From Candidatus Saccharimonadales bacterium (GTDB taxonomy: Bacteria > Patescibacteriota > Saccharimonadia > Saccharimonadales > EFPC-124), in contig DATIBO010000006.1 of the NCBI GenBank assembly GCA_035457485.1, positions 94,134-158,133 on the forward strand: a DNA stretch of 64,000 bases, in the 5' to 3' direction. Position 1 is the stretch's first letter. Each line of letters starts with the position of its first letter. Positions 7,039 through 46,387 of the stretch are shown piece by piece. Both the position numbers and the translations under genes were made by a program. The notes beneath the pieces were generated by a model. That model ran no database searches and was not told where the DNA came from. It was given only the letters and a program-made list of their open reading frames with translations.

Positions 7039-8385
7039 TTATTCTTCGATAATTTTAGTAACTTTATTAATCAGTTCGTCCAAATCCTGTTGGCTTTTTG
7101 CCTCGGCGTTTAAACGTAAAACCGGCTCAGTGTTACTTGGCCGAACATTAAACCATTTACCTTGATCCTCGTAAGCTACTGTAATTCCATCAAGCAGATC
7201 TTGTGCGCCATCGGTAAAAGTTGCCCGTACTCTTTCAATAACTTGCGGTTTGTTTTCGACCTCAAAGTTTATCTCGGGAGACGACACATATTTATTACGA
7301 TACTTATTCGCCAAATCGCTGAGCTTTTCGCCACTCTCGGCTAAGGCCTGGATAGATAAAATCATGCCAATTAAACCAGAGTCGGTGTAAAAATTATCCT
7401 TAAAGTAAAGATGCGCAGTGTGTTCACCTGCAAAAAGCGCCTTTTGTGTACGCATATCGGCCTTAATGTAGCCAAAGCCCACGCGCGTTCTAAACGGCTT
7501 ACCGCCGGCCGCAACAATTGCATCCCTGGCCGTTTGACCGCAAATTAAGTTATACAAAATTGTTGCCCCCGGATTTTTGCCAAGCAAATATGTTGCCAAA
7601 ATTGCGGTTATCACCTTGCCCGTTACCACCTCGCCTTGCTCATCGAGCATTAAAGCGTGATCGCCGTCAGCATCGAATGCGAATCCAAAATCGCAAGCTT
7701 CGATGCTAATTTTAGCTTTTATTTGAGTTAGATTGTCGCCATTCAACGGATCTGCCGGATGATTTGGAAAACTAGGATCCGGATCAAAATACATTGGAAA
7801 AATTTGCAGAGGCAATTTAGTGGCAATTTTTTGTAAAATTGGGCCGGCTGCCCCATTACCAGTATCTATCGCCACCCTATATTTTGGCCATTTTGTAAGA
7901 TCGGCAAAGCTTAAAACGTGCTCAATCCAATCATCGGCTATATCTTTTTTAATAACTTGCCCAGTCTGAGGAGGCGATACAAACTGATTACTTACCACGA
8001 GATCACGAATATTCATCAAACCCTCGCCCACTCCAATTGGTCGCGCTTGTTCGTGGCAGAACCTTAGACCATTGTATTCTGAGTGAATATGCCCAGATGT
8101 AATCATTGCTCCGCCGGCCAGCCCAAATTTCCCCACGCAAAAGTACATCATGTCAGAGGTGATCTGGCCCAAATCCCAAACATCCCTTCCCTGTTGACGT
8201 ACCCCGTTTATAAAAGCCTCGGCAAGTTGAGCTGAGTCCGTGCGAATATCGCGCCCTACAACAACCGCTCCTGCGGTTGGCAGCCATGTCGCTAGCGCGC
8301 GACCCAGCCGCTCGGCAACTTCGGGGGTTAAATCCTCGCCAACTTTGCCGCGGACATCGTATGCTTTAAAAATGTCTAAATTCAC
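7039..8385 (-). CDS. alpha-D-phosphohexomutase family protein, divergent paralog (phosphomannomutase/phosphoglucomutase-like) with non-canonical catalytic loop
   Basis: Four-domain PGM/PMM architecture; N-term KAYDVRGKVGEDLTPEV; catalytic loop reads ITSGHIHSEYNGLRF instead of SASHNPPEFNG; metal loop FDADGDHA. Confidence 0.7.
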   Translation of the reverse strand: MNLDIFKAYDVRGKVGEDLTPEVAERLGRALATWLPTAGAVVVGRDIRTDSAQLAEAFINGVRQQGRDVWDLGQITSDMMYFCVGKFGLAGGAMITSGHIHSEYNGLRFCHEQARPIGVGEGLMNIRDLVVSNQFVSPPQTGQVIKKDIADDWIEHVLSFADLTKWPKYRVAIDTGNGAAGPILQKIATKLPLQIFPMYFDPDPSFPNHPADPLNGDNLTQIKAKISIEACDFGFAFDADGDHALMLDEQGEVVTGKVITAILATYLLGKNPGATILYNLICGQTARDAIVAAGGKPFRTRVGFGYIKADMRTQKALFAGEHTAHLYFKDNFYTDSGLIGMILSIQALAESGEKLSDLANKYRNKYVSSPEINFEVENKPQVIERVRATFTDGAQDLLDGITVAYEDQGKWFNVRPSNTEPVLRLNAEAKSQQDLDELINKVTKIIEE

Positions 8386-8453
8386 GCCGCGCCCCCTTAA
8401 CTAAGTTCATTATAGGCGCCCTGGCAATAAAATCCAGGGCGCAAAGAGCAAAC

Positions 8454-9881
8454 TTAGTTTAAAGCATCTACGTTTGCGGCAATTTTGTTTTCCCATTCTA
8501 CTTCTGGAAAACTATGCAACAGATCTGACAGATATTTTTTGAGCTTGTCGTAGCCCGGCTGGGTTTTCGACTCAAGCTTAATACCTAGGTACGGGCCATT
8601 CTGCGAGTAGCGCACCACAAACATACTGTCATCCGTTTCAAGCCGTACGCCATCACCTGCGCGCTCGTCGTCAATGATCTCGGCGCTTGGGAAATCTTTT
8701 TTGAGTATTGGCACTAATTTTTCAACCAACTTAACCTTTTTGTCATCAGCACAGGCTAGCTTGATTTCTGGGCTCGAAACATATTGAGGCATAGCCGCCA
8801 CTATTTCGCTAAGTTTTTTACCTGTCTCACTTAGGTAACGGATCAGGCGCAAAGTCGAGAACAACCCATCGTCGTGATTATAAAAATCAGCCGAGAAAAA
8901 GAAGTGGCCAGAAAGCTCTCCAATAAACGCAGCCTTAACCTCTTGGTTCTTCTTTTTTAAGAACGAGTGGCCGGTGCGCCACATAAATGGTTCGCCACCT
9001 TTTGCGGTAATCGTTTCGGGCACTGCCTTTGAGCAAAATGTGTTGAACATAATTTTTGCACCGAGATGATCCATCAGAACCGCTTCGGCAAAAATTGCCA
9101 CAAGCATGTCATTCCAGATTATTCCACCCTTTTCGTCAACAATTCCAATACGATCACCGTCGGCGTCGTATGTAAAGCCAACGTCTGCCTTTGCCTCTAA
9201 CACCTCTTTACTTAGACGATCGAGCACGTGCTTTTCGGTTGGATCAGCTACACCAAGCGGAAAAGTAGGATCCACTTTTGTATTGTATTCAATCACCTCA
9301 CAACCGGCTTGGCGCAAAAGATCTGGCGCAATTCCACCAGCAGTTGTGCAGCTCGGATCGACCACCACACGCAACCCTTTTTTAATTGGTAATCGTTTTA
9401 AAATATCGTCAAAGTAAGCTTGGCGAATATCACGCTGTTCAACCTTGCCTGGTTTTTCTGCCATGTCGTAATCTTCTTCTTGCACCATTCGGCAAAGTTC
9501 GCGCATACCATCGCTCACTAAAGTTTCCGAAAAATCATTGGCAAACTTAAAACCGTTAAATTCCGGCGGATTGTGGCTCGCGCTCACGTAAACGCCACCC
9601 TTGCGATTCAAATAATATTGCGACCAATAAAACGTGCCGATCATATGCATACCAATATCGATCACATCAACACCTGTTGCATTAAGACCCTCGATCAAGC
9701 TGGCGGCATATTCCGGGCTGGTTTGACGACAATCGCGACCAACTACAGCTTCGGTAATCCCTTGTCTTTTTAGGTAGGTTCCAAACGCGCGACCAATATG
9801 CTCGGCAATTTCTGGATTTAAATCTTCGCCCACTAAACCTCTAAGGTCATACCCACGAAACATATGTGGATTAATTTTCAT
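8454..9881 (-). CDS. phosphoglucomutase/phosphomannomutase (alpha-D-phosphohexomutase)
   Basis: Canonical motifs VSASHNPPEFNGFKF (phosphoserine loop), YDADGDRIGIVDEKG (metal loop), GELSGH (sugar loop). Confidence 0.85.
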   Translation of the reverse strand: MKINPHMFRGYDLRGLVGEDLNPEIAEHIGRAFGTYLKRQGITEAVVGRDCRQTSPEYAASLIEGLNATGVDVIDIGMHMIGTFYWSQYYLNRKGGVYVSASHNPPEFNGFKFANDFSETLVSDGMRELCRMVQEEDYDMAEKPGKVEQRDIRQAYFDDILKRLPIKKGLRVVVDPSCTTAGGIAPDLLRQAGCEVIEYNTKVDPTFPLGVADPTEKHVLDRLSKEVLEAKADVGFTYDADGDRIGIVDEKGGIIWNDMLVAIFAEAVLMDHLGAKIMFNTFCSKAVPETITAKGGEPFMWRTGHSFLKKKNQEVKAAFIGELSGHFFFSADFYNHDDGLFSTLRLIRYLSETGKKLSEIVAAMPQYVSSPEIKLACADDKKVKLVEKLVPILKKDFPSAEIIDDERAGDGVRLETDDSMFVVRYSQNGPYLGIKLESKTQPGYDKLKKYLSDLLHSFPEVEWENKIAANVDALN

Positions 9882-9979
9882 TTTAACTCCTTGATTATGT
9901 ATTCAAACAAAGCGCTGGTTGCGCAAAAAGGCGTTGTCTTATACGTCCCTCCAACATTAGTACGAGCCCTCATTATAAC

Positions 9980-11008
9980 ATGAACCGGACTTGTTTATCG
10001 CCCCCCAGCGCGCATATACTAAATGTAATGACTAACTGGCAACCTGGTATTCCGGATCAAAAATGGGATGATCAATTATTTAAAAGCGGTGGCGCCTTTA
10101 CGCAAAGCAGCCATTGGGCGGCTGTGCAGGCTGCGCTCGGCAAAAAAACTTTTTATGCAAAAGGTGCCGGATGGCAATGCTTAGCGATTTTAGAACAAGG
10201 TCAGCTTGGCAACCGGATTTACTGCCCTTATGGCCCTCAGGTTTCCTCCCGCTCAGGTTTTGACTTAGCGCTTAGTGCCCTTAAACACTTATCTAAACAA
10301 GAAGAAGTTAGCTATTTTCGTGTAGAGCCCGTTGGAAATCTCACAACTAAACAATTACAGGTCCGGGGATTAAAGCGAGCGCCTAAAGATATACAGCCTC
10401 ACTACACCTGGGTTAAAGATTTAACCAGATCAACTGACGAGCTACTAAGTGAAATGACCAGCACCAACCGTAACTTGTACAACACGGCCGCAAAAAAAGG
10501 TCTAAAATTTAAGCAAAGCAGCTCGGCTGGCGACTTGCCAATATTTTTAGATATGATTCACGAGGTGGCAAAATTAACTGGGATCACCCCGCACAGCGAC
10601 AAAGTATTTCAGGCGATTGCAAGCACTCTGTTGCAGCGCGGTGCAGCTAAGATTTACATCGCCACACACAAAAATGAGCCAGTTGCCAGCGCTTTAGTCT
10701 ACGACAGCCCGACCACGCGTTATTACGCTCATGCCGCCAGCTACCGCGAAGCACGCAAGCTACACCCCGGTAGCCCGCTACTCAGTACCATGATTTTCGA
10801 CGCAAAACAAAACGGCCAGGCCAATTTTGACTTTTTTGGAATCGCTCCACCCAACGAAAAAAACCACAAATGGTCAGGCTTCACGCATTTTAAACAATCT
10901 TTCGGTGGACATATGCGGGAATTTTTGGGAACCTGGGAACTTCCGACTAAACCGCTACACTACGTAGCATATCGCCTAGCGCATAAAGCTAAAGGTTTGT
11001 TAAAATAA
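9980..11008 (+). CDS. FemAB-family (FemX-like) peptidoglycan peptide-bridge aminoacyltransferase, paralog 1
   Basis: ~340 aa, two GNAT-like halves pattern typical of FemABX (aminoacyl-tRNA-dependent) proteins; tandem with paralog 2, 1-nt overlap TAATG. Confidence 0.5.
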   Translation: MNRTCLSPPSAHILNVMTNWQPGIPDQKWDDQLFKSGGAFTQSSHWAAVQAALGKKTFYAKGAGWQCLAILEQGQLGNRIYCPYGPQVSSRSGFDLALSALKHLSKQEEVSYFRVEPVGNLTTKQLQVRGLKRAPKDIQPHYTWVKDLTRSTDELLSEMTSTNRNLYNTAAKKGLKFKQSSSAGDLPIFLDMIHEVAKLTGITPHSDKVFQAIASTLLQRGAAKIYIATHKNEPVASALVYDSPTTRYYAHAASYREARKLHPGSPLLSTMIFDAKQNGQANFDFFGIAPPNEKNHKWSGFTHFKQSFGGHMREFLGTWELPTKPLHYVAYRLAHKAKGLLK

Positions 11009-12036
11009 TGCGTTTTGCTCAAGTTCACGAGTTAGAACACTGGGATGAACTAATTATAGAATCTCCTAACGGCGGTGATGTGTTTCAAACAAAAGCGTTC
11101 GCACAAATCAAACAGTCGCAAGGTTGGATGCCACAATATGTCATTTATGACGTTAAAAACATTGCTTGCCTTTACTTAAGTCGTAAGGTTCCCTTAATTG
11201 GTGAACTTTGGTATTCACCCAAAGGCCCTGGCGCAACAAATGTCACAGACTTTGAGCAAATTTTAAAAGAGAACCAGGAATTTGCTCAAGACAAAAAAAT
11301 TTTTGCTTTTAAAATGGAGCCCGAGATTTTGCAGACAGATGGTTATCCAAAAGATTTACACAAAGTCCATAATATTCAACCTAACGCCAGCACCGTAATT
11401 ATCGATTTATCACCTAACGAAGCTGCTATTTTGGCTACATTCAGGCAACGTGCGCGTCGCGCAATTAGGCAAGCCGAAGCCGCAGGCGTAACGGCCGAAC
11501 CAGTCACCCCAACGCAAGAAAACTTTGAACAAATGTACAAACTTTACAAAGGCACCGGCGAACGAGCTGGGTTCCACGTACGTGACTTCAACTATCACAG
11601 ATCGTTATGGCAAAAATGGATCGACGCCCATCAAGGTCAACTATTTTTTGCATACCACAATAAACAAGTTATTGCCGGCGTTTTTATAGCTTTAATTGGC
11701 AAAAAAGGACTCTACAAAGACGGGGCATCGGATCGCGACGCACTAAAAAGTGGCGCTGCTCATTTATTACAGTGGCGAGTTATGCAGTGGTTAAAATCAA
11801 GGGGCGTAACTAAGTACGACCTCCACGGCACTCCCCCGGCCGATCAGCTAGAAAACACCCAGCACAAGTTTTATGGATTAGGACTTTTTAAAACATCCTT
11901 TAGCAATAGTTTGACCGAATTTGTCGGAACCCTCGATCAGCCAATCAATCAAAATGCCTACAAAGCCTGGTGCAAGCTTGGGGAGCGAGCCAGTCAAAGC
12001 CTAGAATACAGATTTAAAAATAGAACTTTTTACTAA
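11008..12036 (+). CDS. FemAB-family (FemX-like) aminoacyltransferase, paralog 2
   Basis: Same length (342 aa) and architecture as upstream paralog; pattern WYSPKGPG..., KYDLHGTPP similar to FemX family. Confidence 0.5.
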   Translation: MRFAQVHELEHWDELIIESPNGGDVFQTKAFAQIKQSQGWMPQYVIYDVKNIACLYLSRKVPLIGELWYSPKGPGATNVTDFEQILKENQEFAQDKKIFAFKMEPEILQTDGYPKDLHKVHNIQPNASTVIIDLSPNEAAILATFRQRARRAIRQAEAAGVTAEPVTPTQENFEQMYKLYKGTGERAGFHVRDFNYHRSLWQKWIDAHQGQLFFAYHNKQVIAGVFIALIGKKGLYKDGASDRDALKSGAAHLLQWRVMQWLKSRGVTKYDLHGTPPADQLENTQHKFYGLGLFKTSFSNSLTEFVGTLDQPINQNAYKAWCKLGERASQSLEYRFKNRTFY

Positions 12037-12060
12037 TTTACTGTTAGAATAACCTTCACC

Positions 12061-12948
12061 ATGAGTCCCGAGCGTTCCGAAAACCAGGAAGTTTTTACTG
12101 GAATCGATTTCTTTGCCACCGGTTTTACCGAAATTGCCCAACAACCACACCTAGGTAAAAATGCCAGCGGCCCACACACCGAAGTTATTAGGTCTGTTTT
12201 GAATAAAATTCAAGAAGAGCTCACTCAAATTGACGATCGGCTCGATCCTGGATTTCTTACAAGTCAGGATTATTTTACACCGGACATGCGCGCCTTAAGC
12301 GACACTTTGGCGCTACATAAGCGCGCACAAACATCTGACCTCGCCGGACACAAAGACACGAGTTTAGCGCATGTTTTTAACGAGGCAATTTGGCCTGATT
12401 TACAAAATCAACATATTGATTCGCACCTCCTAGCCGAACCGCCATTTGCCACAATGCGCGGCTTAAATATGCTGTACGATGGAATTGTTGGGATTCGTTC
12501 GTGTGCCAACGCATGCTTTAGGATGGTTTTTGCGGGAGTAACTGGCACGATGCCCGCAGCCCGCAGCGTTGCCTACGGTGCTACACAGGTTTTTGGCGAT
12601 CCCGTGATTGAAAATCATCAGTACTTAAACTTTTTTCACAGCACCGCTTTTAAAAAGTTTTACAAAAAGCGCGTCGCTACTGTTGATATTTTAGGATCAG
12701 ACTTTAGCACCATCGCTAACTTAGCACAGATCGCAAACAAACACGCCGCTAAGTTGTTTTGTATATTGCCTCTAAAATCAACAAACTCCAGCTTAGCTAA
12801 ACATCAGGTAATTTTAACTGGCGTTGCCCAAGATGAAGTTATGTTTACCGATCCGCTAAGCGGTCACAAAAATTTTGCACCAAAACAGCAATTTGCAGAA
12901 CGCTGGGCCCAAGCGCTGAATCAGGCCTTAATTGTGATTGCTTTTTAA
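12061..12948 (+). CDS. hypothetical protein, possible papain-fold C39-like cysteine peptidase
   Basis: Cys in IRSCANACFRMV and downstream His...Asp (HQVILTGVAQDEVMFTDP) resemble the Cys/His/Asp arrangement and the H-x-v-v-l...v-DP motif of peptidase C39 family; weak, motif-level only. Confidence 0.3.
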   Translation: MSPERSENQEVFTGIDFFATGFTEIAQQPHLGKNASGPHTEVIRSVLNKIQEELTQIDDRLDPGFLTSQDYFTPDMRALSDTLALHKRAQTSDLAGHKDTSLAHVFNEAIWPDLQNQHIDSHLLAEPPFATMRGLNMLYDGIVGIRSCANACFRMVFAGVTGTMPAARSVAYGATQVFGDPVIENHQYLNFFHSTAFKKFYKKRVATVDILGSDFSTIANLAQIANKHAAKLFCILPLKSTNSSLAKHQVILTGVAQDEVMFTDPLSGHKNFAPKQQFAERWAQALNQALIVIAF

Positions 12949-13064
12949 GTATTGAAGCCAACAGCGATCAAGCCGAAGCCCACGATAAAACTCCAGGTCA
13001 AAAAAAGCGTGACACTAGAGCGCGCGAATTAGCACGGCGCATTTTTAACAAACTCAGGCGAAAA

Positions 13065-14360
13065 TCACCGCCCAAGCTTAGCTAACTCTTCCTTCACAAC
13101 CCTGCGGTCATCCCAGTCGATTTTGCCTTCACCCATTCCACGGTAATCTTGATTTCCTAACCCCGGAATCAGCACAATGTCACCCGTTTTGGCCATTTTT
13201 AGCGCTGTCGCAATAGCTTCACGTCGCTCAATAACCTCTTTAAAGTCGATTTTCTTATTAGAGCTTTCTATTCCGCGTCTTATCATTGACCGGATCTTTT
13301 CGGAATCCTCGGTGTAATTTTCGAGTTCCGTTAGAATCACTACGTCAGAATTTTCGGCACATAACTTGCCAATTGGTTCACGTTTGCTTGCGTCACGATC
13401 ACCATCGCAACCAATCACGGTAATCAATCGCTTACCACCTAACCTTTTAACCTCACCAAAGAGTTTTTTAAGCGCGTCGGTTGTATGTGCGTGATCAATT
13501 AATACACTAAAGCCCTGACCTTCGTCGATAAATTGCATGCGGCCAGGAACATTTATCAATGCATTAAAACCCGTCTGGATCGCCTGATCATCCGCATCAT
13601 AAAACCTCGCAACCGTGATAGCCGCCATCGCGTTATAAACATTAAAAAGCCCAGTTAAATGCATTTTGAACTTCGATTTCTTTTCGTCTGTTTCTAAAAC
13701 AAATTCAGCACCTTTCGGATCCAACTTAACGGCAGTCAATTTAGTGTCGGCTAAATCTGCTTTGCCGTAGGTCAAAACGCGCGCGCGACTGGCGCTTTCA
13801 AAAGTATGAAAATATGCGTCGTCGATGTTTAGAACGCTCAGTTTTTTTGCGCGTTTAAATAGCATAGCTTTTGCGGCAGCGTAGTTTTCCATTGTGCCAT
13901 GATAGTCTAGATGGTCTTGAGTCAAGTTGGTCATCACAGCGACATCTACGGGGATTCCCCATACCCGGCCCTGAGTTAGTGCGTGACTGCTGACCTCTAA
14001 AACTAGAGTGTCACAGCCCGCAGCTTTGATCTGGCCAATTAAACTTTGCAGCTTCATACCGCCGGCAGTCGTTAAATGAGTGTCATTTTCATTGATCTCA
14101 CCACCCAAACTGGTTGTAGCTGTGCTCAGCAAGCCAACTTTATAACCGGTAGCAGTTAAAAGCGCAGCAATCATATTGCAAGTTGTAGTTTTACCGTTAG
14201 TCCCAGTTACAGCGATTACATTCATCCCCCATGATGGAAATCCGTGACGAACATTTGCTGCCATTGCTTCCGCATGATGTCGAGGAATCATAACTCTGTT
14301 ATATAAATTTTCTTCTACGTGCGCTCGCGCCCACCTTTTTACCGGTCCAAATGGGTTCAT
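13065..14360 (-). CDS. Mur ligase family protein, MurE-like, lacking the N-terminal UDP-substrate-binding domain
   Basis: P-loop VIAVTGTNGKTTT at residue ~50 (not ~110 as in MurE); DHAHTTDAL (cf. MurE DYAHTPDAL); C-terminal VIGCDGDRD...DVVILTELENYTED MurE-like. Confidence 0.65.
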   Translation of the reverse strand: MNPFGPVKRWARAHVEENLYNRVMIPRHHAEAMAANVRHGFPSWGMNVIAVTGTNGKTTTCNMIAALLTATGYKVGLLSTATTSLGGEINENDTHLTTAGGMKLQSLIGQIKAAGCDTLVLEVSSHALTQGRVWGIPVDVAVMTNLTQDHLDYHGTMENYAAAKAMLFKRAKKLSVLNIDDAYFHTFESASRARVLTYGKADLADTKLTAVKLDPKGAEFVLETDEKKSKFKMHLTGLFNVYNAMAAITVARFYDADDQAIQTGFNALINVPGRMQFIDEGQGFSVLIDHAHTTDALKKLFGEVKRLGGKRLITVIGCDGDRDASKREPIGKLCAENSDVVILTELENYTEDSEKIRSMIRRGIESSNKKIDFKEVIERREAIATALKMAKTGDIVLIPGLGNQDYRGMGEGKIDWDDRRVVKEELAKLGR

Positions 14361-15583
14361 AATAAATCCTCAAAAACTTTTTTATCACTCCACTTTTTGC
14401 GCTTTTCGCCGTGTTGACGGTATTGGCGTGCACTGTAACCACAAACAACAATAATGTCGCCACGACGTGCAATGTTGATCGCTTTTTCTAGCGCCTCTGC
14501 TCGATCTGGGACTTCTTCAATACTAGCATCGCCAGCAGATCGGCTTGCTCCCTCGAGTAATTGCGCCCTGACAGATTCCGGGGCCTCCGTTGACAAATAA
14601 TCACCGTCAGTAACAATTACGCGACCAGAGTGACTCGCCGCCACTTCGCCAACTGCACCACGCCAAGATGTTGGTTGCCCCAAGGACGCGCTTAAAACTG
14701 TGATTATTCGATTTTTGGCAAAGTGCTTAATACTTTCTAAAACTTCGTTGACCCCGCTTGGAGAAACTGAACTATCGAGGACTATCTGGTAAGGTCGTTC
14801 TGTTACAACATATTCCGCCGCGCCAGGCTGAACCGCAAGCTTAAAGACGCCCTCTTCAATTGTTTCCAGCGGAGCATGAATCATATATGCTGCGGCTGCA
14901 GCCGCCGTTAAGCTGTAGATTGCCTGCTTAGTCGTAAGTTTGCATGTTAATGAAATTCGGGTCTGTGTATCAAAGCTCAAATTAATCTCGCAACCTTTAG
15001 GGTGCATTTTAACGCCTTCGATTCGAGCCTCTGCTCGATCACTTGTCCCGTAACTTAATACTTTTTCTGACCCAACATGCTTAGCGATCTCGTTGTAACC
15101 GCTGTCGTCACTTGGCAAAATTATGTTGCCACTGACCTTTCCAGCTAATTGTCGCAGCTGCTCAATATTTGCTGCGAGCGCAACTTGGTCAAGATGCTCA
15201 TCGGTGATTCTCCTAACAACCAAGGTTGAAATCGGTAAGGACGTAAAACCATGATCTGGTAAAAATTGCGGCAGCTGCAAAATTGCAAAATTACATTTTG
15301 CGCGTTTAATTTGAGCTAAAAGTTCCTGCAGCCTAAATGCATCTTCAATTGGCTGGGCCTGGTCACTGCCGCTCGCTCGTTCGTTTGCGATCTCAACGTA
15401 GTCAGCGCTAATCACACCAACTCGTTCACCGGAAGTTTTTAAAATTTCGGTCAAAGCCGCGATGGTAACGTCGGCTCCATCTACCCCATACACACCAATG
15501 ACGTGTAGTTTTTTCCCAGGCATCCCATGACGTAAAGCCGCAGCATGAGCACTGATTTTAGAAGTAAGCTTATTTGGCGACAC
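14357..15583 (-). CDS. Mur ligase family paralog with degenerate ATP-binding motifs (probable non-catalytic MurE-like protein)
   Basis: P-loop position reads IGVYGVDGADVT (GTNGKTT degraded); DYAH motif replaced by DSSVSPSG; C-terminal ITVLSASLGQ...RVIVTDGDYLSTEAPE retains MurE-like pattern; ATGA overlap with downstream ligase. Confidence 0.5.
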   Translation of the reverse strand: MSPNKLTSKISAHAAALRHGMPGKKLHVIGVYGVDGADVTIAALTEILKTSGERVGVISADYVEIANERASGSDQAQPIEDAFRLQELLAQIKRAKCNFAILQLPQFLPDHGFTSLPISTLVVRRITDEHLDQVALAANIEQLRQLAGKVSGNIILPSDDSGYNEIAKHVGSEKVLSYGTSDRAEARIEGVKMHPKGCEINLSFDTQTRISLTCKLTTKQAIYSLTAAAAAAYMIHAPLETIEEGVFKLAVQPGAAEYVVTERPYQIVLDSSVSPSGVNEVLESIKHFAKNRIITVLSASLGQPTSWRGAVGEVAASHSGRVIVTDGDYLSTEAPESVRAQLLEGASRSAGDASIEEVPDRAEALEKAINIARRGDIIVVCGYSARQYRQHGEKRKKWSDKKVFEDLL

Positions 15584-22481: not shown

Positions 22482-22632
22482 CCCTACCTCCCGTAGTAAC
22501 GTGCAGCCTCGAGTTCACGAGGCCATAATAAAGCAAGAAAATGCACTCTTATCACTCCGCAAACTGTCAAACTATAACATAATTAATTGTTTTCTTCAAT
22601 TCATCGCTTATCTGTTATAATGTGTTCGGCGC

Positions 22633-22724
22633 GGAGAGGTGTCCGAGTGGTTGAAGGTGCCGCTCTCGAAAAGCGGTGTAGCCAGCAATGGTTACCGAGG
22701 GTTCGAATCCCTCCTTCTCCGCCA
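22633..22724 (+). tRNA. tRNA-Ser (anticodon CGA), type II with long variable arm, CCA encoded
   Basis: Acceptor GGAGAGG/CCTCTCC, anticodon stem CCGCT/AGCGG with loop CTCGAAA, T-arm GAGGG-TTCGAAT-CCCTC, 3' GCCA. Confidence 0.88.
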
Positions 22725-22784
22725 ATAGGTAGTCAGTGTAAAAGCTGGCTATTTATTTTGCCCACAAAACCGTACAATAGCTAT

Positions 22785-23816
22785 ATGGATTTTTTACGCG
22801 CCACTCTTCGCGCATTGTTTGTTGTTATAACTTCGGCCAGCTTAGCCACACTAATCAGCGTGGCGACAATGCAGGCAACGATTTTAAACCGCTCGACAGT
22901 TTTGCGTTGGATGGAGAATAGTGGAATTTATCAAAACATCGTTAACATAGCAGTGCAGCTCCAACCTGATTCAGCACCAGAGAGTCAGCAGTTTTTGGGC
23001 GAAACTACCATTCGCGATGCAATTAATCAAACTCTAGATCCAGCTTTCTTAAGAACTTCAACCGAAAAAATTATTAATAGTACTTACGATTGGTTAGAAG
23101 GCAAGAGCGAAACAATCACGTTTTCGATTCCATTAAGCGAAAAACGCGATCTTTTAAAGCAAAATTTAGCCAAGCAAATCGAACCCAAAATTTCGAGCCT
23201 TCCAACCTGTAGCTCAAATTTTAGCGGTGTAACTAGTCAGCAAGTCCAATGTATTCCTAAAAACTCCAATGCCCAAACTTATGCCGCCGATCTTGCGAGC
23301 CGAGCGGTGGATAGTTCTGACTTTTTAGTGCAGCCCCTAACCCAGCAAAATATTCAGCTGCCAACGCTCCCAGCTGTTAACGTTTTACGATTTTTGGCAA
23401 GCAATTTACAGATCATAATCTCCGGACTAGCTGTCCTGGCGGTTCTAAGCGCAACGGGTTATGTTTTGTTGAGTAAAGATAAACTTCGCGGCATTCAAGC
23501 TGTGGGTCGACGTGCTTTTTTTGGTACTTTAATTTTAGTCATTGGCGGTGGAGTTCTTTGGTATTTCTCGAACAAGCTAACTCTAAGTGCATTCGGCGAT
23601 CAAGCAATTATCACCAGCATAGTTGATCCGTTAGCACGACAAATTGCTGCAGATGTTGGAATGTGGTTATTCATTTTTAGCGGAATTGTTTTTGCAACCG
23701 GTGGTTTGATCTGGCTTGGTGCATTTTTGACAATCAAAAATCTAGAGAAAAAACTAAAAGCCGCACATGCTGGCCCGCCGAAAGATTTGCCGCCAATCGG
23801 TCCCGCTGCTATATAA
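22785..23816 (+). CDS. hypothetical polytopic membrane protein. The track start at 22587 overlaps the tRNA; ATG 22785 is preferred
   Basis: N-terminal TM, large extracytoplasmic region, three C-terminal TM helices. Confidence 0.45.
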   Translation: MDFLRATLRALFVVITSASLATLISVATMQATILNRSTVLRWMENSGIYQNIVNIAVQLQPDSAPESQQFLGETTIRDAINQTLDPAFLRTSTEKIINSTYDWLEGKSETITFSIPLSEKRDLLKQNLAKQIEPKISSLPTCSSNFSGVTSQQVQCIPKNSNAQTYAADLASRAVDSSDFLVQPLTQQNIQLPTLPAVNVLRFLASNLQIIISGLAVLAVLSATGYVLLSKDKLRGIQAVGRRAFFGTLILVIGGGVLWYFSNKLTLSAFGDQAIITSIVDPLARQIAADVGMWLFIFSGIVFATGGLIWLGAFLTIKNLEKKLKAAHAGPPKDLPPIGPAAI

Positions 23817-23824
23817 TAAACTTT

Positions 23825-24325
23825 GTGAAGCACGGCGACTACTTAGTTGATATTTTAGACAAACAAGGTAGGTTAATTGGCAAAAAACCGCGACGCGAAA
23901 TAAATAAGCAAGTCGATATTTGTCATACTGTTTTTGGACTTTTAAAAGTTGGTGAAAATATGTTTGTCCTAGGTTTAATAGATGACTCCCGATTTGGAAC
24001 CAGTCTGTACAACGGGCTTTATGGAGCCCCCATGGCAACAATAAAACGCTACCAAGAAGCTGCAGAGCAAGCAGCTATAAGAGGGTTTAAAGAAGAGCTC
24101 GACATAGCACAAAAGCCAGAATTAATAGGCGAAGGAATGCTTCAATTGCAAGATGGAATTTTTAAGTTTGCGAGCATTTTCGTTGTAAATCTTAGGTCGG
24201 TCGAAAAGCTTAAAGTTAAAAATCCCATCTGTTTAACAAGTCATGGGCTAGATACTAAGATTGACGAGCCAAATTTTGCCCCGACCCTACAAGAAATCTG
24301 GCGAACGTACCGTGCAAAATTGTAA
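23825..24325 (+). CDS. Nudix-fold-like protein with degenerate Nudix box
   Basis: Pattern GAPMATIKRYQEAAEQAAIRGFKEELDI approximates Gx5Ex7REUxEExGU with substitutions; N-term resembles IDI/Nudix beta-strand region. Confidence 0.3.
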   Translation: MKHGDYLVDILDKQGRLIGKKPRREINKQVDICHTVFGLLKVGENMFVLGLIDDSRFGTSLYNGLYGAPMATIKRYQEAAEQAAIRGFKEELDIAQKPELIGEGMLQLQDGIFKFASIFVVNLRSVEKLKVKNPICLTSHGLDTKIDEPNFAPTLQEIWRTYRAKL

Positions 24326-24393
24326 AAAAGGGCTCGCACAACAGATCAATTAATGTTACAATATGTTGGTTAACCGCCCAGACCAGAACTCAC

Positions 24394-24486
24394 GGAGGAG
24401 TACCCAAGTGGCTGAAGGGGACGGTTTGCTAAATCGTTAGAGTGGAGCAATCTGCTGCGAGAGTTCGAATCTCTCCTCCTCCGCCA
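24394..24486 (+). tRNA. tRNA-Ser (anticodon GCU), type II, CCA encoded
   Basis: Acceptor GGAGGAG/CTCCTCC perfect, anticodon stem ACGGT/ATCGT loop TTGCTAA, T-arm GAGAG-TTCGAAT-CTCTC, discriminator G + CCA. Confidence 0.88.
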
Positions 24487-24523
24487 AGAAAATAGAGCTG
24501 CTTTTGCCAGCTCTATTTTCGTT

Positions 24524-25114
24524 TTAGCGGGTTTGGGCGTCACGAACAGCCAACATTGCCGCTAAACCCATTCTGTAGACCACCAGAGGCTGCGGCGCAT
24601 GCTTTTTGCGACCCCCTTCCGTCATCAAGTCTCGATCAAAGTCATCAAACCGATACAACCTCACACCCTGAACTTCATCGTCCTGAATATTAACCTTACT
24701 TAAGTCTAACACGGGGTCATATACCACAAAATCTTTGCTTACAACCCTGTGAGGGTGTGACCAGTCCTTAAAAAACATCTCCGTTCCCAAGCGCCCAATT
24801 GGCAAAAAACGCTCACGCGGATAGCGCAAACTGAGCTCCTCCTCGGTTTCGCGCACTGCAGCATCTAAGTAATCTTCGCCGACATCCACGTGCCCAGCGA
24901 CAGAGATATCCCAAGTGTTAGGCATTATTTTTTTATTAGCGGCTCGGTGTTGCTGCAAAAAACCTTCGTCGTTAAAAACCCAGATGTGAGTATCGCGGTG
25001 CAACAAACCTTGCGCGTGAATCTGCGCCTTTGTGGCAGTTTTGCCGGTTGGTCGCCCAAATTCATCAACAATATCAAGTAGCTCCTCTTGGTGAGGGCCG
25101 GTAAATCTTTCCAT
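24524..25114 (-). CDS. Nudix hydrolase
   Basis: Nudix box GHVDVGEDYLDAAVRETEEELSL. Confidence 0.7.
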   Translation of the reverse strand: MERFTGPHQEELLDIVDEFGRPTGKTATKAQIHAQGLLHRDTHIWVFNDEGFLQQHRAANKKIMPNTWDISVAGHVDVGEDYLDAAVRETEEELSLRYPRERFLPIGRLGTEMFFKDWSHPHRVVSKDFVVYDPVLDLSKVNIQDDEVQGVRLYRFDDFDRDLMTEGGRKKHAPQPLVVYRMGLAAMLAVRDAQTR

Positions 25115-25204
25115 ACTTCTCCTAATTTTTTACGAGGAAGCTTCCTAAAATTAACAATACAACAAGCTCCTAAACAGATATAGATTGTTTGTTTTGACGC
25201 AATT

Positions 25205-25260
25205 AAATATGTGTCAGCCAACTTTGTGACAAACAAATTTATGTCAAATCGTTTTGACAT
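25205..25260. promoter_or_regulatory. palindromic TGACA/TGTCA repeats in divergent Nudix intergenic region (candidate operator)
   Basis: Perfect 8-bp-arm palindrome ATGTCAAA-TCGT-TTTGACAT (25241..25260) plus two further TGACA half-sites upstream. Confidence 0.35.
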
Positions 25261-25288
25261 AACAGAGGTAAAAGCGTAGAATACTTCC

Positions 25289-25948
25289 GTGCACCATATA
25301 CAAAAAAGCATTGTCAGCCTATTAATGTACTCGGAAAGCCTAAAATACGCTCAAATGCGACCAAAAGGCGTAGAGAGCAATCAGTTTGCATATCACCTTG
25401 AACAATTATTAAAATCAAAGATCATCCAAAAAAACGGGCGAGATTACAGTCTAACCGGGACCGGACTAATGCTGGCTGATCGATCAAGTCATAAAAATAT
25501 CGATCTCCGTAAACAGCCGCATATTGTAACTACAATTTGCGTTATGAGTGGCAATAAAATTTTGCTTTTTGAACACAAATTTCAGCCGTATATTGGGCTT
25601 AAGGGCTTTGTGCAAGGGCGAACTCATTTCAACGAAACAGTACAAGAATCGGCTCGACGTGAATTGTTTGAAAAAACTGGCCTAGAAAACGTCGATTTAG
25701 TCCTACGAGGAACAGTCTATATTACAGCAAAAAAAGACGGCGAAGTTATTAGTAAGTTACTTAGTCACGTTTTTTATGGCGAGCTTACCGGGCAGCCAAA
25801 ACTTGAGTCCGACAACCCAAAGAAAGGTGAGGCGTTTTGGGTGGAGGAGTCTGAGATCAAAGGTGGCACGATGCCAGGATTTAGAGAGATAAGCAATCTT
25901 CTTAAAAACGAAAGTGGTTTTTTTAAGGAAATTGAAGCCACTATTTAG
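25289..25948 (+). CDS. winged-helix (HTH) domain fused to Nudix hydrolase domain; putative Nudix-related regulator
   Basis: N-terminal ~70 aa helix-rich wHTH-like segment; C-terminal Nudix box GRTHFNETVQESARRELFEKTGL. Confidence 0.55.
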   Translation: MHHIQKSIVSLLMYSESLKYAQMRPKGVESNQFAYHLEQLLKSKIIQKNGRDYSLTGTGLMLADRSSHKNIDLRKQPHIVTTICVMSGNKILLFEHKFQPYIGLKGFVQGRTHFNETVQESARRELFEKTGLENVDLVLRGTVYITAKKDGEVISKLLSHVFYGELTGQPKLESDNPKKGEAFWVEESEIKGGTMPGFREISNLLKNESGFFKEIEATI

Positions 25949-26016
25949 ATCAAAGCAACTTTAGGTTGTCATAAAACAAAATAACTCCCGCATAAGGAGT
26001 TATTTTTAATAATTTC

Positions 26017-26093
26017 TGGTACACCCGACAGGATTTGAACCTATGACCTTTGGCTCCGCAAGCCAACGCTCTATCCAGCTGAGCTACGGGTGC
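26017..26093 (-). tRNA. tRNA-Arg (anticodon GCG as read), 77 nt with CCA
   Basis: Reverse complement GCACCCG-TA-GCTC-AGCTGGATA-GAGC-G-TTGGC-TTGCGGA-GCCAA-AGGTC-ATAGG-TTCAAAT-CCTGT-CGGGTGT-A-CCA; A20 in D-loop and G37 consistent with Arg (CGN). Confidence 0.85.
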
Positions 26094-26205
26094 ATATTGC
26101 AGCCTTGAAGGCGTATAAACGTCTACATGGCTGCACCTTGAACTAGAAGGTACTTCCCACATTTCGATGCAGAACAGATGTGATTATATCAAGGTTTGGC
26201 AAGAT

Positions 26206-26757
26206 TTAAAAGTGTAATCTGCGCATTATTACATCAAAGGGGTCGGGGGTAGTTTTTTCAAGAGGTAAATGATCACTAATTATATTAAGTACGGCCTCTG
26301 CCTGGTCGTTACCAAAATAAATATTTACAGCCGGCGACAGGCGCTTGACGGGAACCAATACGATGGAATAAAAAGCTCCGTCTTCATGAACGCTAAAGGC
26401 ACGAAAGTCTTTAAAAGAGTACTCTCGGCCATCAATAACTAAGTTTTCTTGAGTAAGGTGGTAACTCACGATTCGCGGCTTTTTGAATCCAAAATAACAA
26501 AATGCAACAGCCATAACTGTAATAAGAACTGCGAAAGTCCATTGCTTAAAGTAAACAGTTACACCGATCAAAGCAAGTGATACGGCAATTACAGCGATCA
26601 ACCAGCCGAAGCCCTTGTCGTGCTGAACATATTCGGAGGCTTTCCAGTCGATAAAATCAGGTCTAGGTGCGTCAACGTCAAATTCACGCTCCGGCGCATC
26701 GTACCCCTGTTGTTGCGGCGTGTAAAGACTATTCTCCCTATGTTGATCTGACTGCAT
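26206..26757 (-). CDS. hypothetical membrane protein (two TM helices followed by a small beta-rich cytoplasmic domain, bacterial PH-like)
   Basis: TM pair GWLIAVIAVSLALIGVTVYF / FAVLITVMAVAFCYFGF then ~100-aa soluble domain. Confidence 0.4.
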   Translation of the reverse strand: MQSDQHRENSLYTPQQQGYDAPEREFDVDAPRPDFIDWKASEYVQHDKGFGWLIAVIAVSLALIGVTVYFKQWTFAVLITVMAVAFCYFGFKKPRIVSYHLTQENLVIDGREYSFKDFRAFSVHEDGAFYSIVLVPVKRLSPAVNIYFGNDQAEAVLNIISDHLPLEKTTPDPFDVIMRRLHF

Positions 26758-26832
26758 AAATAAAGTATATCACTAAACATAAACGCGTAGTACTCGATTT
26801 TATTAACAGATGTGGTAAAATACATAACTAAT

Positions 26833-26922
<90 letters not shown>

Positions 26923-33538: not shown

Positions 33539-34384
33539 ATGGCCACTTATAAAGTACCTCAAGATGTTGAAGCCGAAGATAAGCTACTTGGACCTTTTAG
33601 CTTTAGACAGTTTGTCTATTTAGCAATTGCTCTTGGGGCAGCAGTAATCGCTTTCTTTTTGTTCAGGGTTTTTCCGCTTTTGTTTTTAATCCCGCTACCT
33701 ATAACCATTTTCTTTGGCGCTTTGGCTTTGCCACTACGAAAAGATCAGCCAATGGAAACATACTTATTGGCCATTGTGAGATTTAATCTAAAACCAAAGC
33801 TTCGTAAGTGGGATCCAGAGGGTGTAATTAGTTATGTAGAAATAATCGCGCCAAAGTTAATGGAGAAACAGCTTACAAAAGAATACGGCGCGGATTCGGC
33901 TCAAGAACGCTTAGACTATCTTGCGCGCGTTATGGACAGTCGTGGTTGGGCTCATAAAGGTGTGGAAACAACCACAAATCCAAGCGTAACTGCAACAGTA
34001 GCGGCCGAAGCTAGATCGACAGTTGATGTCCTAGACGAAGACCAGGCGTTGTCGCGAACCTTTAAGGAGCTTATGGACCAAAAAGCAGAAGAGCAAAGGC
34101 AGGCGGCGATTGAAATGATGAAAAAAGCGCAAACCGAACCCGCTCTGGCAACTCCGGTGAATATAAACTACAACCCTTACCCAACTTCAATGCATCAAAA
34201 AGTTATTCTGCCTGCCGGACAACAAAAGCCCGCACCTGTTGCGCAAAAACCTGCGATGACACCGCCAGTATCACCTGATATAATTAGACTCGCGAACAGC
34301 AATCTGAAGGTGAGTACAATTGCACACGAAATCCAGAAGCTTGAACTTAATAAGGGTGCAGTAGTAGATATTAAACTTCATTAA
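33539..34384 (+). CDS. VirB3/PrgI-like small membrane domain with C-terminal extension
   Basis: N-terminal ~90 aa: charged lead-in then two TM helices (FVYLAIALGAAVIAFFLF / LLFLIPLPITIFFGALAL), position directly upstream of VirB4 as in many T4SS. Confidence 0.35.
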   Translation: MATYKVPQDVEAEDKLLGPFSFRQFVYLAIALGAAVIAFFLFRVFPLLFLIPLPITIFFGALALPLRKDQPMETYLLAIVRFNLKPKLRKWDPEGVISYVEIIAPKLMEKQLTKEYGADSAQERLDYLARVMDSRGWAHKGVETTTNPSVTATVAAEARSTVDVLDEDQALSRTFKELMDQKAEEQRQAAIEMMKKAQTEPALATPVNINYNPYPTSMHQKVILPAGQQKPAPVAQKPAMTPPVSPDIIRLANSNLKVSTIAHEIQKLELNKGAVVDIKLH

Positions 34385-34406
34385 AAATACAGGGAGGGCT
34401 GGTTAA

Positions 34407-35285
34407 ATGCCACCCAACAATCAACAGACAGCTAATCAACAACCGGTTAATGCAACCCTCCCACAGGGTGCTTCACCTTTAGCGGCTCTTCCGCCAACTC
34501 CGGCGGGCAACATCGTGGCAGGTGGCTCACCCCAGGTAGCAAGTACGGGTAACAAACAAAAAAATCCGAATAGCGCGCAAAACAGCTTGCTCATCTCTGA
34601 ACTTCGCGATGGAATGGCCATATTAAACGATGGCACTATGCGCGCTGTAATTGCTTGCCGTTCGATTAACTTTGATCTTATGAGCTCACGCGAACGCGAA
34701 GCAGTTGAATTTTCTTATCAGCAGTTCTTAAACTCACTTTACTTTCCAATGCAAATATTTGTTCGATCCCAAAAAGTCGACATCGGCCCGTATCTTGAAC
34801 GCTTGGGTAAAATTCGCCGCGAACAAGACAACATGCTCCTTGGTGTTTTAATGGACGATTATGTCGACTTTATTGGTATTCTTGCGCAAGAAACCAACAT
34901 TATGGAAAAGAGCTTCTTTATAATAGTGCCTTACTACCCGGGCGGCGATGTTGGAAGCGCAGTCAATACTAGTAAGAACTTTTTAGCAAACTTGTTTTCA
35001 CCGCAGACCCAGCAGCGAATCAGAATCGACGAAAAAACTTATGCAAAAGCTGTCGATGAGCTTCGCAATCGCACCGATACGGTCATAAACGGACTGCTTC
35101 AAATTGGAATCCGTGCCGTCCGATTAAACACAAAAGAGCTAGGCGAACTATACTACAATGTCTACAACCCAGACACAGCTGTGCGCGAACCACTAGGTAA
35201 GTTCGAAAACCTAACTAGTGCTGCAGTCGTTACCAAGGGCGAAGGCAAAGCTCCGCAACCACACTTAGATAAGGAGGCGATGTAA
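34407..35285 (+). CDS. VirB4 N-terminal domain encoded as separate ORF (Q/P-rich disordered lead + VirB4 N-domain)
   Basis: Segment ELRDGMAILNDGTMRAVIACRSINFDLMSSREREAVEFSYQQFLNSLYFPMQIFVRSQKVD matches the N-terminal domain pattern of Gram-positive VirB4 (TrsE/PrgJ/TcpF); SD GGGAGGG upstream. Confidence 0.5.
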   Translation: MPPNNQQTANQQPVNATLPQGASPLAALPPTPAGNIVAGGSPQVASTGNKQKNPNSAQNSLLISELRDGMAILNDGTMRAVIACRSINFDLMSSREREAVEFSYQQFLNSLYFPMQIFVRSQKVDIGPYLERLGKIRREQDNMLLGVLMDDYVDFIGILAQETNIMEKSFFIIVPYYPGGDVGSAVNTSKNFLANLFSPQTQQRIRIDEKTYAKAVDELRNRTDTVINGLLQIGIRAVRLNTKELGELYYNVYNPDTAVREPLGKFENLTSAAVVTKGEGKAPQPHLDKEAM

Positions 35286-35286
35286 T

Positions 35287-39820: not shown

Positions 39821-41094
39821 ACAACTTAGCTAAACGATTTATCCTAATTTTACTGGCGGCAACACTACTTATCGCGAACGGTGCCAGCGAAGTCAGTGCT
39901 TATAACACTCCTCAAACTGTAGAGAGGGGAGGGCCGGCTTTTGAGGAAGGTTCGTGCAGCGCCACGCCGCAAACATCGGAACTTGAAGGCTTCAAGCTAC
40001 CGGCAACCAAAGGTTATATGGGCAATGAAGATCCAGTAGACGAAAACGGCAATCTTACAACCACCGGAGAGGGCATGGCTTACGGTAAGTTTGCAAAACT
40101 TGGCCAAAATTACCGTGACTTCTACATCACAATGCGGTGGACTACACATGAATGGTTCTGGGACGGCAGCGCCAGAGTGGCCGATCAGGCTCAAATTGCT
40201 TGGCTAAATGAAGCCCCACGAAAAGTTCTAGTAACCAATCCAAGATCAAACAGAAGTATTATTGCCGTTGTTATGGAATCTGGCCCAGCGCCATGGACGG
40301 GCGTAGACACTGAGCGAAATAACGATCCTAAGCAAGGCTGGCAACAGCCACAATTAGGAACACCTGCAGAGTATGGCGGTCGCGTTTCCGGGTTCCCGCC
40401 AGTGGCGGTCGAAGCTTTGCTCGCTCAGCAACGAACGGGTGGTCAAACTAATGGTGATGAGCTGCTTTATTCCTGGGCACCAGACCAAAACGCTGAGCCC
40501 GGACCTACGGACTTATCGGTTCAAAACTCGGACAGTACGGCAATTTGTGCTCCAACAGGTTTAGGTGTAAGCCCAGACGGTTTCGTATTCCCACTAATCA
40601 CAACAAAAACAGAACTCAAAAAAGGTGGCTGGAACCCTAATTGTGTTAACAAAGTTTCATCTATGGGTGCGCTAGGAACAGTCGTGAGAATACAAGGCCT
40701 CTGTCACCACGATTACTTAGCAGCAGACATTCTTGATCCAGTTGGAACTAAAGTTGTTGCCGTACGACCCGGCAGAGTTATTAGGGCGAACTCAGAGATT
40801 AGCTGCTTTAGCCCAAGTGTAACAATATTTAGCGACCCAGCTCTTGGCGGCGACGGTAACACATACTACACAACCCATATGGGGCAGCAAGGCAGGCCTA
40901 CCGAAGACACAATTGTGAATGCGGGCGATATTATTGGCGAAATTGGCGACCCGCACGGTTGCTTCCCACCACACTTGCACATAGACGTCAGTCCGATCCA
41001 AACGGGATTCCCGAGAAATAGCGGTGGAACACACGGCCCTTTACTCGATCCTCAGCCGGCATTAAAAGCTTCTTACCAAACATTACCGGAGTAA
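39817..41094 (+). CDS. secreted M23-family metallopeptidase (peptidoglycan hydrolase)
   Basis: Signal peptide; C-terminal M23 motifs HHDYLAADI and HLHIDV with TYYTTHMGQ between them; ATGA overlap with upstream. Confidence 0.65.
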   Translation: MNNLAKRFILILLAATLLIANGASEVSAYNTPQTVERGGPAFEEGSCSATPQTSELEGFKLPATKGYMGNEDPVDENGNLTTTGEGMAYGKFAKLGQNYRDFYITMRWTTHEWFWDGSARVADQAQIAWLNEAPRKVLVTNPRSNRSIIAVVMESGPAPWTGVDTERNNDPKQGWQQPQLGTPAEYGGRVSGFPPVAVEALLAQQRTGGQTNGDELLYSWAPDQNAEPGPTDLSVQNSDSTAICAPTGLGVSPDGFVFPLITTKTELKKGGWNPNCVNKVSSMGALGTVVRIQGLCHHDYLAADILDPVGTKVVAVRPGRVIRANSEISCFSPSVTIFSDPALGGDGNTYYTTHMGQQGRPTEDTIVNAGDIIGEIGDPHGCFPPHLHIDVSPIQTGFPRNSGGTHGPLLDPQPALKASYQTLPE

Positions 41095-46130: not shown

Positions 46131-46387
46131 TCTTTCTTCTTTCTTATTATATTTATATATAAGTAGTAATAGTAGTAATAGGGCGTGTGCAAAGTGGGTA
46201 AAAACCCTGAACTTTATCTGTTAAAGTTCGCCCAAGGCTGTGTAAAAATTGTGTGCAAACGTGTGTAAGTTGTGTGTGAATTATGTGGGTGTTTATGTGT
46301 TTGGTGCTAGTAGGGTTGTGGTGGGTTGTGGAACTTGTGGATGAACACCCCACCAAGTTTCCATAGTTTTTGAACAGGTTTTGCACA
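46131..46387. promoter_or_regulatory. oriC part 2: dnaA-dnaN spacer with AT-rich DUE-like stretch and TGTGGA-type DnaA-box-like repeats
   Basis: 46141..46182 is an AT-rich stretch TTCTTATTATATTTATATATAAGTAGTAATAGTAGTAATAG; it is followed by TTGTGGATGA (46335..46344), GTTGTGGAAC, GGTTGTGGTGG and several TGTGTG repeats. Confidence 0.5.

Follow-up and report, generated by a model that had tools for sequence, protein, structure and literature searches.

In the 64,000-nucleotide stretch of a Candidatus Saccharimonadales genome analysed here (contig DATIBO010000006.1; the whole stretch is called the window below), a compact block of five genes encodes two transferases of the FemAB family, a papain-fold protein and two proteins related to the Mur ligase MurE. 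The block appears to be the Saccharimonadales version of the usual cytoplasmic stem-peptide locus, mostly ordinary for its phylum, an explanation that, taken whole, we hold to be reasonably likely. Three points, for none of which the literature search returned a paper, can defensibly be put forward as new: a dead paralogue of MurE encoded directly beside MurE, a lineage-specific second FemX, and a non-canonical amino acid pocket on a MurE that has no N-terminal domain. The dead paralogue, a protein of 408 amino acids, has lost the residues of an ATP-dependent ligase, is conserved under strong purifying selection and is probably a partner of MurE that acts as a scaffold or regulator with no catalysis of its own. 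The features concerned, in window coordinates, are:

14357..15583, minus strand: pseudo-MurE (dead MurE paralogue), 408 amino acids, directly upstream of MurE
13065..14360, minus strand: predicted MurE, 431 amino acids, third-residue ligase of the UDP-MurNAc stem peptide, assigned by NCBIfam equivalog
14357..14372, minus strand: junction of paralogue and MurE, with an ATGA overlap and GAGGA
9980..11008, plus strand: fem1, FemX-type transferase of the FemAB family, 342 amino acids as called
11008..12036, plus strand: fem2, second FemX-type transferase, 342 amino acids
12061..12948, plus strand: C39/C70-like papain-fold protein, 295 amino acids, assigned by fold and catalytic triad
8454..9881, minus strand: phosphohexomutase (PGM/PMM or GlmM-like), 475 amino acids, with Pfam PGM_PMM domains I-III

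The dead MurE paralogue

Both Mur-like proteins carry the Pfam domains Mur_ligase_M and Mur_ligase_C above the cut-offs (33.4 and 55.1 bits respectively in the 408-residue protein, 179.7 and 85.4 bits in the 431-residue protein), so that the family label given to them in the original prediction stands; its picture of two ligases that both add amino acids does not, since the catalytic residues are missing from the family of the 408-residue protein in 41 of 41 members. This protein is 26% identical to its neighbour and stays under the MurE cut-offs of NCBIfam (NF001126, 153.8 bits against 373; TIGR01085, 127 bits against 257.3), and its P-loop reads GVDGADV. Throughout the family the equivalent of Lys57 is replaced by A, G, S or T (Lys in 0/41) and Thr58 is lost, the ATP-binding equivalents of Arg274 and His292 are each found in 0/41, the sequence L-x-Q-P stands where MurE has DGDRD, and the SSH, TNL and DHLDYH motifs have disappeared; a lysine at the position of the carbamylated lysine is present in 14 of the 41 and His150 is kept in eight. 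Because the ATP, Mg and substrate residues are lost across all these members, the 408-residue protein is predicted to be a pseudoenzyme that cannot act as an ATP-dependent ligase.

The paralogue family is made up of intact open reading frames of 383-418 amino acids in approximately 42 sequence clusters, which share 45 invariant and 40 near-invariant columns of their own, including the motifs GSDQA, HPKG, RPY, KNR, ARRGD, YRQxG and WxD. The ratio of nonsynonymous to synonymous substitution rates (dN/dS) is 0.07 for the paralogues of L098 and L099 and 0.10 for those of L008 and L092, alongside 0.04 for MurE and 0.08-0.11 for fem1, all of these being estimates in which dS is near saturation. Such comparisons show a protein under strong purifying selection and not a pseudogene. 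Its AlphaFold model (pLDDT 89.8, pTM 0.89) is confidently predicted to keep the fold of Mur ligase domains 2 and 3, and a Foldseek search with it gave TM-scores of 0.85-0.87 to the MurE structures 8G6P, 1E8C and 4C12, the best match being 8G6P at TM 0.85. The second-best match, in sequence as in fold, is the plant protein PAP11.

A role beside MurE is suggested by gene order. Eleven paralogue-bearing loci were compared (the window, L005, L006, L008, L092, L094, L096-L099 and L103), and in 11/11 the paralogue adjoins MurE, even though the partner MurEs are only about 40% identical across the lineages. Two arrangements occur: in type I the paralogue precedes MurE and two FemAB genes are present, while in type II MurE precedes the paralogue and there is a single FemAB gene. 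In the window the stop codon of the paralogue and the start codon of MurE overlap as ATGA, and a Shine-Dalgarno-like GAGGA, still within the 3′ end of the paralogue gene, precedes this by 8 nt; the corresponding junctions show a 4-nt overlap in L005 and gaps of 2 nt in L092, 4 nt in L103, 8 nt in L006 and 134 nt in L008. This overlapping or near abutment of stop and start in several loci, together with the GAGGA of the window, suggests that the two proteins are translationally coupled. In a neighbour-joining tree (computed without bootstrap) the paralogues form one long-branched clade nested within the MurEs of Saccharimonadales, and the topology inside this clade mirrors that of the partner MurEs.

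A metagenome scan with a profile of the paralogue returned eight true loci; a profile search of genome contigs with the MurE alignment was dominated by generic MurE of all phyla, and approximately eight Saccharibacteria loci were usable among the matches listed. One further locus, L104, belongs to the sister clade of type I and has neither the paralogue nor a FemAB gene at its MurE locus. At 7132-9314 of L104 MurE is preceded by a protein of 283 amino acids that matches neither Pfam nor the paralogue profile, and the locus is rearranged, with FemAB absent nearby and an IS1595 transposase close by.

Known systems offer partial parallels for a Mur-fold protein that is retained for something other than ligation. 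PAP11, the MurE-like subunit of the plastid-encoded RNA polymerase (8R5O, 8W9Z, 8XZV), is likewise derived from MurE and kept for a structural rather than a ligase role, but it is eukaryotic, has long N-terminal extensions and sits in a transcription complex, whereas the 408-residue paralogue is bacterial, lacks the N domain, stands beside an active MurE and has an independent origin within Saccharimonadales. The MurE-MurF fusion or complex (Bordetella, 8F5D) and MurT-GatD are precedents for Mur-fold proteins that act as fixed pairs or as scaffolds; in these the Mur-fold partner or partners remain ATP-dependent enzymes, while here one of the two is dead. In its most specific form the proposal would be that the 408-residue family is the first bacterial Mur-ligase pseudoenzyme, an obligate, co-expressed, non-catalytic partner that pairs as a heterodimer with the N-domain-less MurE of soil Saccharimonadales and governs how active this enzyme is, which substrate it takes or how its product is passed to the adjacent FemX enzymes; all this together we advance tentatively, as possible.

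The strongest competitor, which we judge to be somewhat unlikely, gives the dead paralogue a new ATP-independent role of its own, in precursor binding or sensing or in another kind of catalysis, with no partnering of MurE and with the adjacency of the two genes left over from their origin by duplication. Its invariant and near-invariant columns are indeed unlike the motifs of MurE, many of them being charged or nucleophilic; the residues peculiar to it include Cys97/His111/Asp128 besides GSDQA, HPKG, RPY, KNR and ARRGD; the strong purifying selection would suit this reading as well, and the swapped gene order between types I and II and the wide gap in L008 indicate that strict coupling is not required. 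Set against this are the constancy with which the paralogue accompanies MurEs so far diverged, the overlap or the gap of at most 8 nt in most loci, and the outcome of the NCBIfam and PADLOC scans, which gave neither a precedent nor a motif match to any known catalytic family. Between the two, we prefer the reading as a non-enzymatic partner of MurE.

MurE without its N-terminal domain

The 431-residue protein is most likely the housekeeping MurE, a reading that is strongly suggested, rather than proven, by its passing the equivalog cut-off (NF001126, 384.3 bits against 373), by its syntenic locus and by L012, in which the N-domain-less MurE is convergent with murF. It also exceeds TIGR01085 (382.2 bits against 257.3), and its best match in the PDB is the MurE of T. 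maritima (4BUB). All 31 MurE sequences compared, that of the window included, keep the P-loop GTNGKTT, Glu122, His150, the carbamylated Lys164, Arg274, His292 and DGDRD without variation. Compared with the canonical enzymes (1E8C, 4BUB, 4C12, 8G6P) it thus has domains 2 and 3, all the ATP and Mg motifs and the carbamyl-lysine, and differs in having no N-terminal UDP-binding domain and in its LENY/GLGNQ pocket.

The synteny reaches well beyond the paralogue-bearing genomes. In L002, from a distant Saccharibacterium whose MurE is 46% identical, the order is ValRS (valyl-tRNA synthetase)-TsaD-[MurE]-[FemAB]-PGM-GroES/EL, with exactly one MurE and one FemAB, and the series TsaD-MurE-FemAB-PGM-GroES/EL is kept in distant Saccharibacteria with a single MurE; adjacency of MurE and FemAB is found in Moranbacteria also. 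No other Mur ligase is encoded in the window beyond the two. The original prediction had allowed that its Mur genes might simply be the housekeeping set and, judged from the window and the syntenic loci, the 431-residue protein comes close to that description.

That both proteins are without an N-terminal domain, as had been claimed, is borne out: their alignments begin at position ~86-87 of the MurE profile (87 for the 431-residue protein), and a tblastn search of the window with the N domains of nine full-length MurEs found no sequence coding for one (best E 0.42). The absence does not point to special chemistry, since the best 120 homologues of the MurE, 397-488 amino acids long, all lack the N domain (PF01225; 120/120). 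MurEs of ~425-450 amino acids with no N-terminal domain were seen across Saccharibacteria and Moranbacteria, those of L002, L012, L020 and L027 included. To judge by these homologues, the missing domain looks like a phylum-level trait, normal in Saccharibacteria and in other Patescibacteria, of which we found no description in the literature searched. The idea that the paralogue stands in for the missing domain was considered and rejected, as most Saccharibacteria, and Moranbacteria too, have an N-domain-less MurE with no paralogue beside it.

The motifs DNPR and GKGHE of MurE bind and select meso-diaminopimelic acid (meso-DAP). At the aligned positions the 431-residue protein has LENY for DNPR and GLGNQ for GKGHE, and most MurEs of Saccharibacteria have E-E-(S/P)-Y and GMGHE. 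The LENY/GLGNQ pair argues against the meso-DAP subtype, not against membership of MurE. Because DNPR and GKGHE are replaced and a FemX neighbour is conserved, residue 3 of the stem peptide is probably a diamino acid other than meso-DAP, of the Lys/Orn type, with a free amine on its side chain.

The FemAB pair

The assignment of two FemAB-like transferases was upheld by a profile search against PF02388, in which fem1 scored 106.1 bits and fem2 94.4 bits against a cut-off of 24. The two are only 21% identical to each other. S. aureus FemX (6SNR) aligns with each of them over both of its GNAT-like halves, the stretch …FKKVWG included, and its coiled-coil insert is skipped. The Phe-Lys motif is present in the two proteins (FKQSF in fem1, FKTSF in fem2), and F304-K305-x-S-F is invariant in 11 orthologues; in W. 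viridescens FemX the lysine of this active-site motif is Lys305. In being short, devoid of the coiled coil and built of two GNAT-like domains with the FK motif, the proteins resemble Weissella viridescens FemX, and the tandem arrangement recalls MurM/MurN, BppA1/BppA2 and FemX/A/B, among which murMN adds successive residues to the side chain. The differences from the known FemAB systems lie in a very low similarity (26 bits for fem1 and 63 bits, over the full length, for fem2 against a cut-off of 500 for the FemX equivalog NF047883), in the host, an epibiont of the Candidate Phyla Radiation (CPR), and in the conserved linkage with MurE.

Orthology separates the two genes. In L002, L006, L012, L096, L098 and L099 the one FemAB gene linked to MurE is orthologous to fem1, which is, by this distribution, the ancestral FemX beside MurE. 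Orthologues of fem2 are found only in type I loci (the window, L005, L008, L092 and L103); it is a lineage-specific extra copy, and this suggests a longer side chain or cross-bridge. The orthologues of fem1 are 325-327 amino acids long and begin MTxWQ, for which reason its true start is probably the ATG at 10028 (Met17), the called gene being 16 codons too long; no clear Shine-Dalgarno sequence precedes either ATG (9980 or 10028).

Gram-positive bacteria commonly have tandem FemAB genes whose products build up the side chain residue by residue, as in MurM/MurN and BppA1/BppA2. The elaborated or unusual cross-bridge or stem-peptide chemistry of the original prediction is accordingly plausible and not exotic: it fits the two FemX proteins, one of them lineage-specific, and the non-canonical pocket, and it draws nothing from the Mur pair, the loss of the N domain or the C39-like gene. 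A tie of the paralogue to fem2 or to the altered MurE pocket was rejected, type II loci having the paralogue together with one FemAB gene and a pocket of the GMGHE type.

Three tRNA-Ser genes (anticodons CGA, GCT and TGA) and a tRNA-Arg(GCG) lie within 4.3 kb at 22633-26922, about 10 kb from the FemAB pair, and are probably the usual set of isoacceptors. The called open reading frame 22587-23816 has a wrong start, since its 5′ end overlaps the tRNA-Ser(CGA).

A papain-fold protein in a variable slot

For the 295-residue product of the third plus-strand gene, described in the original prediction as a C39-like Cys/His/Asp protein, the triad and the papain fold were borne out while the threshold of the PF13529 profile was missed: a Pfam scan gave no match at E≤0.1, a precomputed PF13529 match was graded weak, and only 3/60 members of its family match PF13529 at E≤0.01. 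A full HMMER scan found 143 relatives, where a word-index search had found the protein itself alone. In an alignment of 60 of the family Cys148 is conserved in 59, His248 in 60, Asp264 in 56 and Trp282 in 60, with a C39-type motif S-C-A-N-A-C-F-R-M-V around Cys148. The AlphaFold model (pLDDT 93.5) consists of a helical domain at the N terminus followed by an alpha/beta domain; its best matches in the PDB are the C39-like peptidase 3ERV of B. anthracis, CtaG, the peptidase domains of PCAT1 and ComA, and AvrRpt2, with TM-scores of only 0.22-0.36 over the whole protein, and the family profile matches AvrRpt2 (E 1.1e-5) across both the Cys and the His/Asp motifs. With the C39/C70 peptidases (3ERV, ComA, PCAT1, AvrRpt2) and the ligase CtaG it therefore shares the fold, the order Cys…His…Asp and the motif C-x-x-A-C-x-x-M; it differs in its extra N-terminal helical domain of ~135 amino acids, in staying under the Pfam threshold and in having no ABC transporter, the classical associate of C39 domains, either fused or adjacent. 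There is no signal peptide, which indicates a cytoplasmic protein, and a PADLOC search for defence systems returned no match for it, for the 408-residue paralogue or for a protein of 183 amino acids.

None of the ten other loci with the paralogue, all five other type I loci among them, has the C39-like gene, and the putative peptidase of the original prediction does not belong to what is conserved in the block. Between the convergent units other genomes have a NUDIX gene and one for a 259-residue protein (L005), genes for three (L008) or two (L092) uncharacterised proteins, or murF (L012), and these occupants are not homologous across genomes, apart from L092_191 and L008_207. The closest homologues of the 295-residue protein adjoin PALP, aminotransferase or chorismate-mutase genes. 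On this distribution the gene would be a lineage-specific accessory in a variable slot and not core to the system. In L103 the same slot, in the same orientation 3′ of fem2, holds a transglutaminase-like Cys/His/Asp protein of 314 amino acids (9881-10825, minus strand; PF01841, 29.7 bits against a cut-off of 23), which belongs to the same broad papain-like class but has no sequence relationship to the window protein and is not matched by the 295-residue family profile.

We consider it improbable that the C39/C70-like protein takes an active part in the pathway, whether as a peptidase that trims the side chain or recycles stem peptides or as a ligase or transacylase resembling CtaG, a papain-like enzyme that forms amide bonds (PMC12865890). 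Its position 24 nt 3′ of fem2 on the same strand, the conserved triad in a protein with no signal peptide, the place of CtaG among the best fold matches and the occupant of the L103 slot can all be cited for such a part; the ten loci that manage without the gene, the unrelated genes that take its place in other genomes and the contexts of its nearest homologues, which lie outside peptidoglycan synthesis, speak for an accessory.

A model for the locus

In the pathway that we propose, the housekeeping N-domain-less MurE would add residue 3, a diamino acid of the Lys/Orn type; fem1 would then transfer a first amino acid from aminoacyl-tRNA onto the amine of this residue, and fem2, in its subclade only, would add a second to give a side chain or cross-bridge of two residues, as with MurM/MurN or BppA1/BppA2. 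The sequential addition is inferred because both proteins belong to the FemAB family and retain the FK motif. The 408-residue paralogue, having no means of binding ATP, Mg2+ or substrate, would serve as a non-enzymatic scaffold or regulator of MurE. The C39-like gene is probably co-transcribed with fem1 and fem2, in the window genome only.

That both Mur-like proteins are instead active ligases, in a dedicated tailoring pathway that operates with the two FemX proteins and the peptidase beside a canonical murC-F set, seems to us very improbable. The presence of both Mur domains in each protein, the non-canonical pocket and the tight clustering of the genes are what such a pathway would lead one to expect, but in 41/41 members of the 408-residue family the P-loop Lys and Thr, the ATP-binding Arg and His and DGDRD are missing; the 431-residue protein, which clears the equivalog cut-off, corresponds by orthology to the sole MurE that Saccharibacteria have at this locus; and conservation of the block does not extend to the peptidase gene. 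As for the 408-residue gene being a decaying, functionless remnant of a tandem duplication, the loss of all catalytic motifs and the low identity to its neighbour would agree with this, but it is effectively refuted by the intact reading frames, dN/dS of 0.07-0.10, 45 invariant columns and confident fold.

Several points weigh against our explanation, in addition to the near saturation of dS. A second, full-length MurE could lie elsewhere in the 889-kb genome, beyond the window that was searched, and sequence does not reveal what residue 3 and the side-chain residues are. The interaction of MurE with the paralogue is a putative one; the 134-nt gap in L008 means that coupling is not universal; and type II genomes, which have the paralogue with one FemAB gene, indicate that it is independent of the second FemX. 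In the neighbour-joining tree the paralogue clade, on its long unbootstrapped branch, falls beside MurE of the L002 type and not beside its own neighbours, and the history therefore needs losses or transfer. Finally, the L103 slot hints weakly that fem2 may be linked to papain-fold enzymes more often than chance.

The peptidoglycan chemistry of CPR/Patescibacteria is essentially unmeasured, and our literature search found no paper on saccharibacterial muropeptides or on FemAB or MurE variants in this group; the locus yields predictions that can be tested. The wall should not be of the meso-DAP type and its residue 3 should bear a side chain built by FemX, the fem2 of the type I subclade should make this side chain longer there, and MurE should work with no UDP-binding domain. 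If the partner role is true, the paralogue would be a bacterial example among the few Mur-ligase-fold proteins recruited non-catalytically, PAP11 being the one met here, and could show how ultra-small epibionts regulate the synthesis of their precursors. Current understanding would not be overturned.

Organization of the locus and of the window

The five open reading frames have exactly the coordinates given in the original prediction and form two convergent units, one on the plus and one on the minus strand, that meet at a spacer of 116 nt (12948/13065). The start of fem2 shares 1 nt with the end of fem1, and the C39-like gene begins 24 nt 3′ of fem2. The composition of the locus, ~45% G+C, matches its surroundings, and a scan for promoters and terminators gave counts near those of shuffled sequence. 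The 408- and 431-residue proteins are 100% identical to proteins encoded on an 889,392-bp contig of a Candidatus Saccharimonadales MAG at NCBI.

The block had also been placed directly downstream of two phosphohexomutase genes, which is not the case, these genes running divergently from fem1. The 475-residue phosphohexomutase is the conserved divergent neighbour of fem1 at all syntenic loci (L001, L002, L005 and L006) and scores 373 bits with NCBIfam PgmG and 313 bits with Arch_GlmM, both under the cut-off. The two phosphohexomutase paralogues occupy 7039-9881, and neither reaches the curated equivalog cut-off of GlmM, PgmG or ManB, so that either might supply the GlcN-1-P for UDP-GlcNAc.

The window also encodes GroES/EL, TsaD, ValRS, dnaA/dnaN and a type IV secretion block of the Patescibacteria type. 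The last, at 33539-41094, comprises a PrgI-family protein, a TraG/VirB4-like P-loop ATPase, an uncharacterised protein of 882 amino acids and an M23 peptidase, and resembles the monoderm-type type IV secretion system of Patescibacteria (compare PMC12102498). At 43966-47758, on the minus strand, lie a recF-like gene, dnaN and dnaA, and because the cumulative GC skew has its minimum at ~44-46 kb the replication origin is probably beside dnaA.

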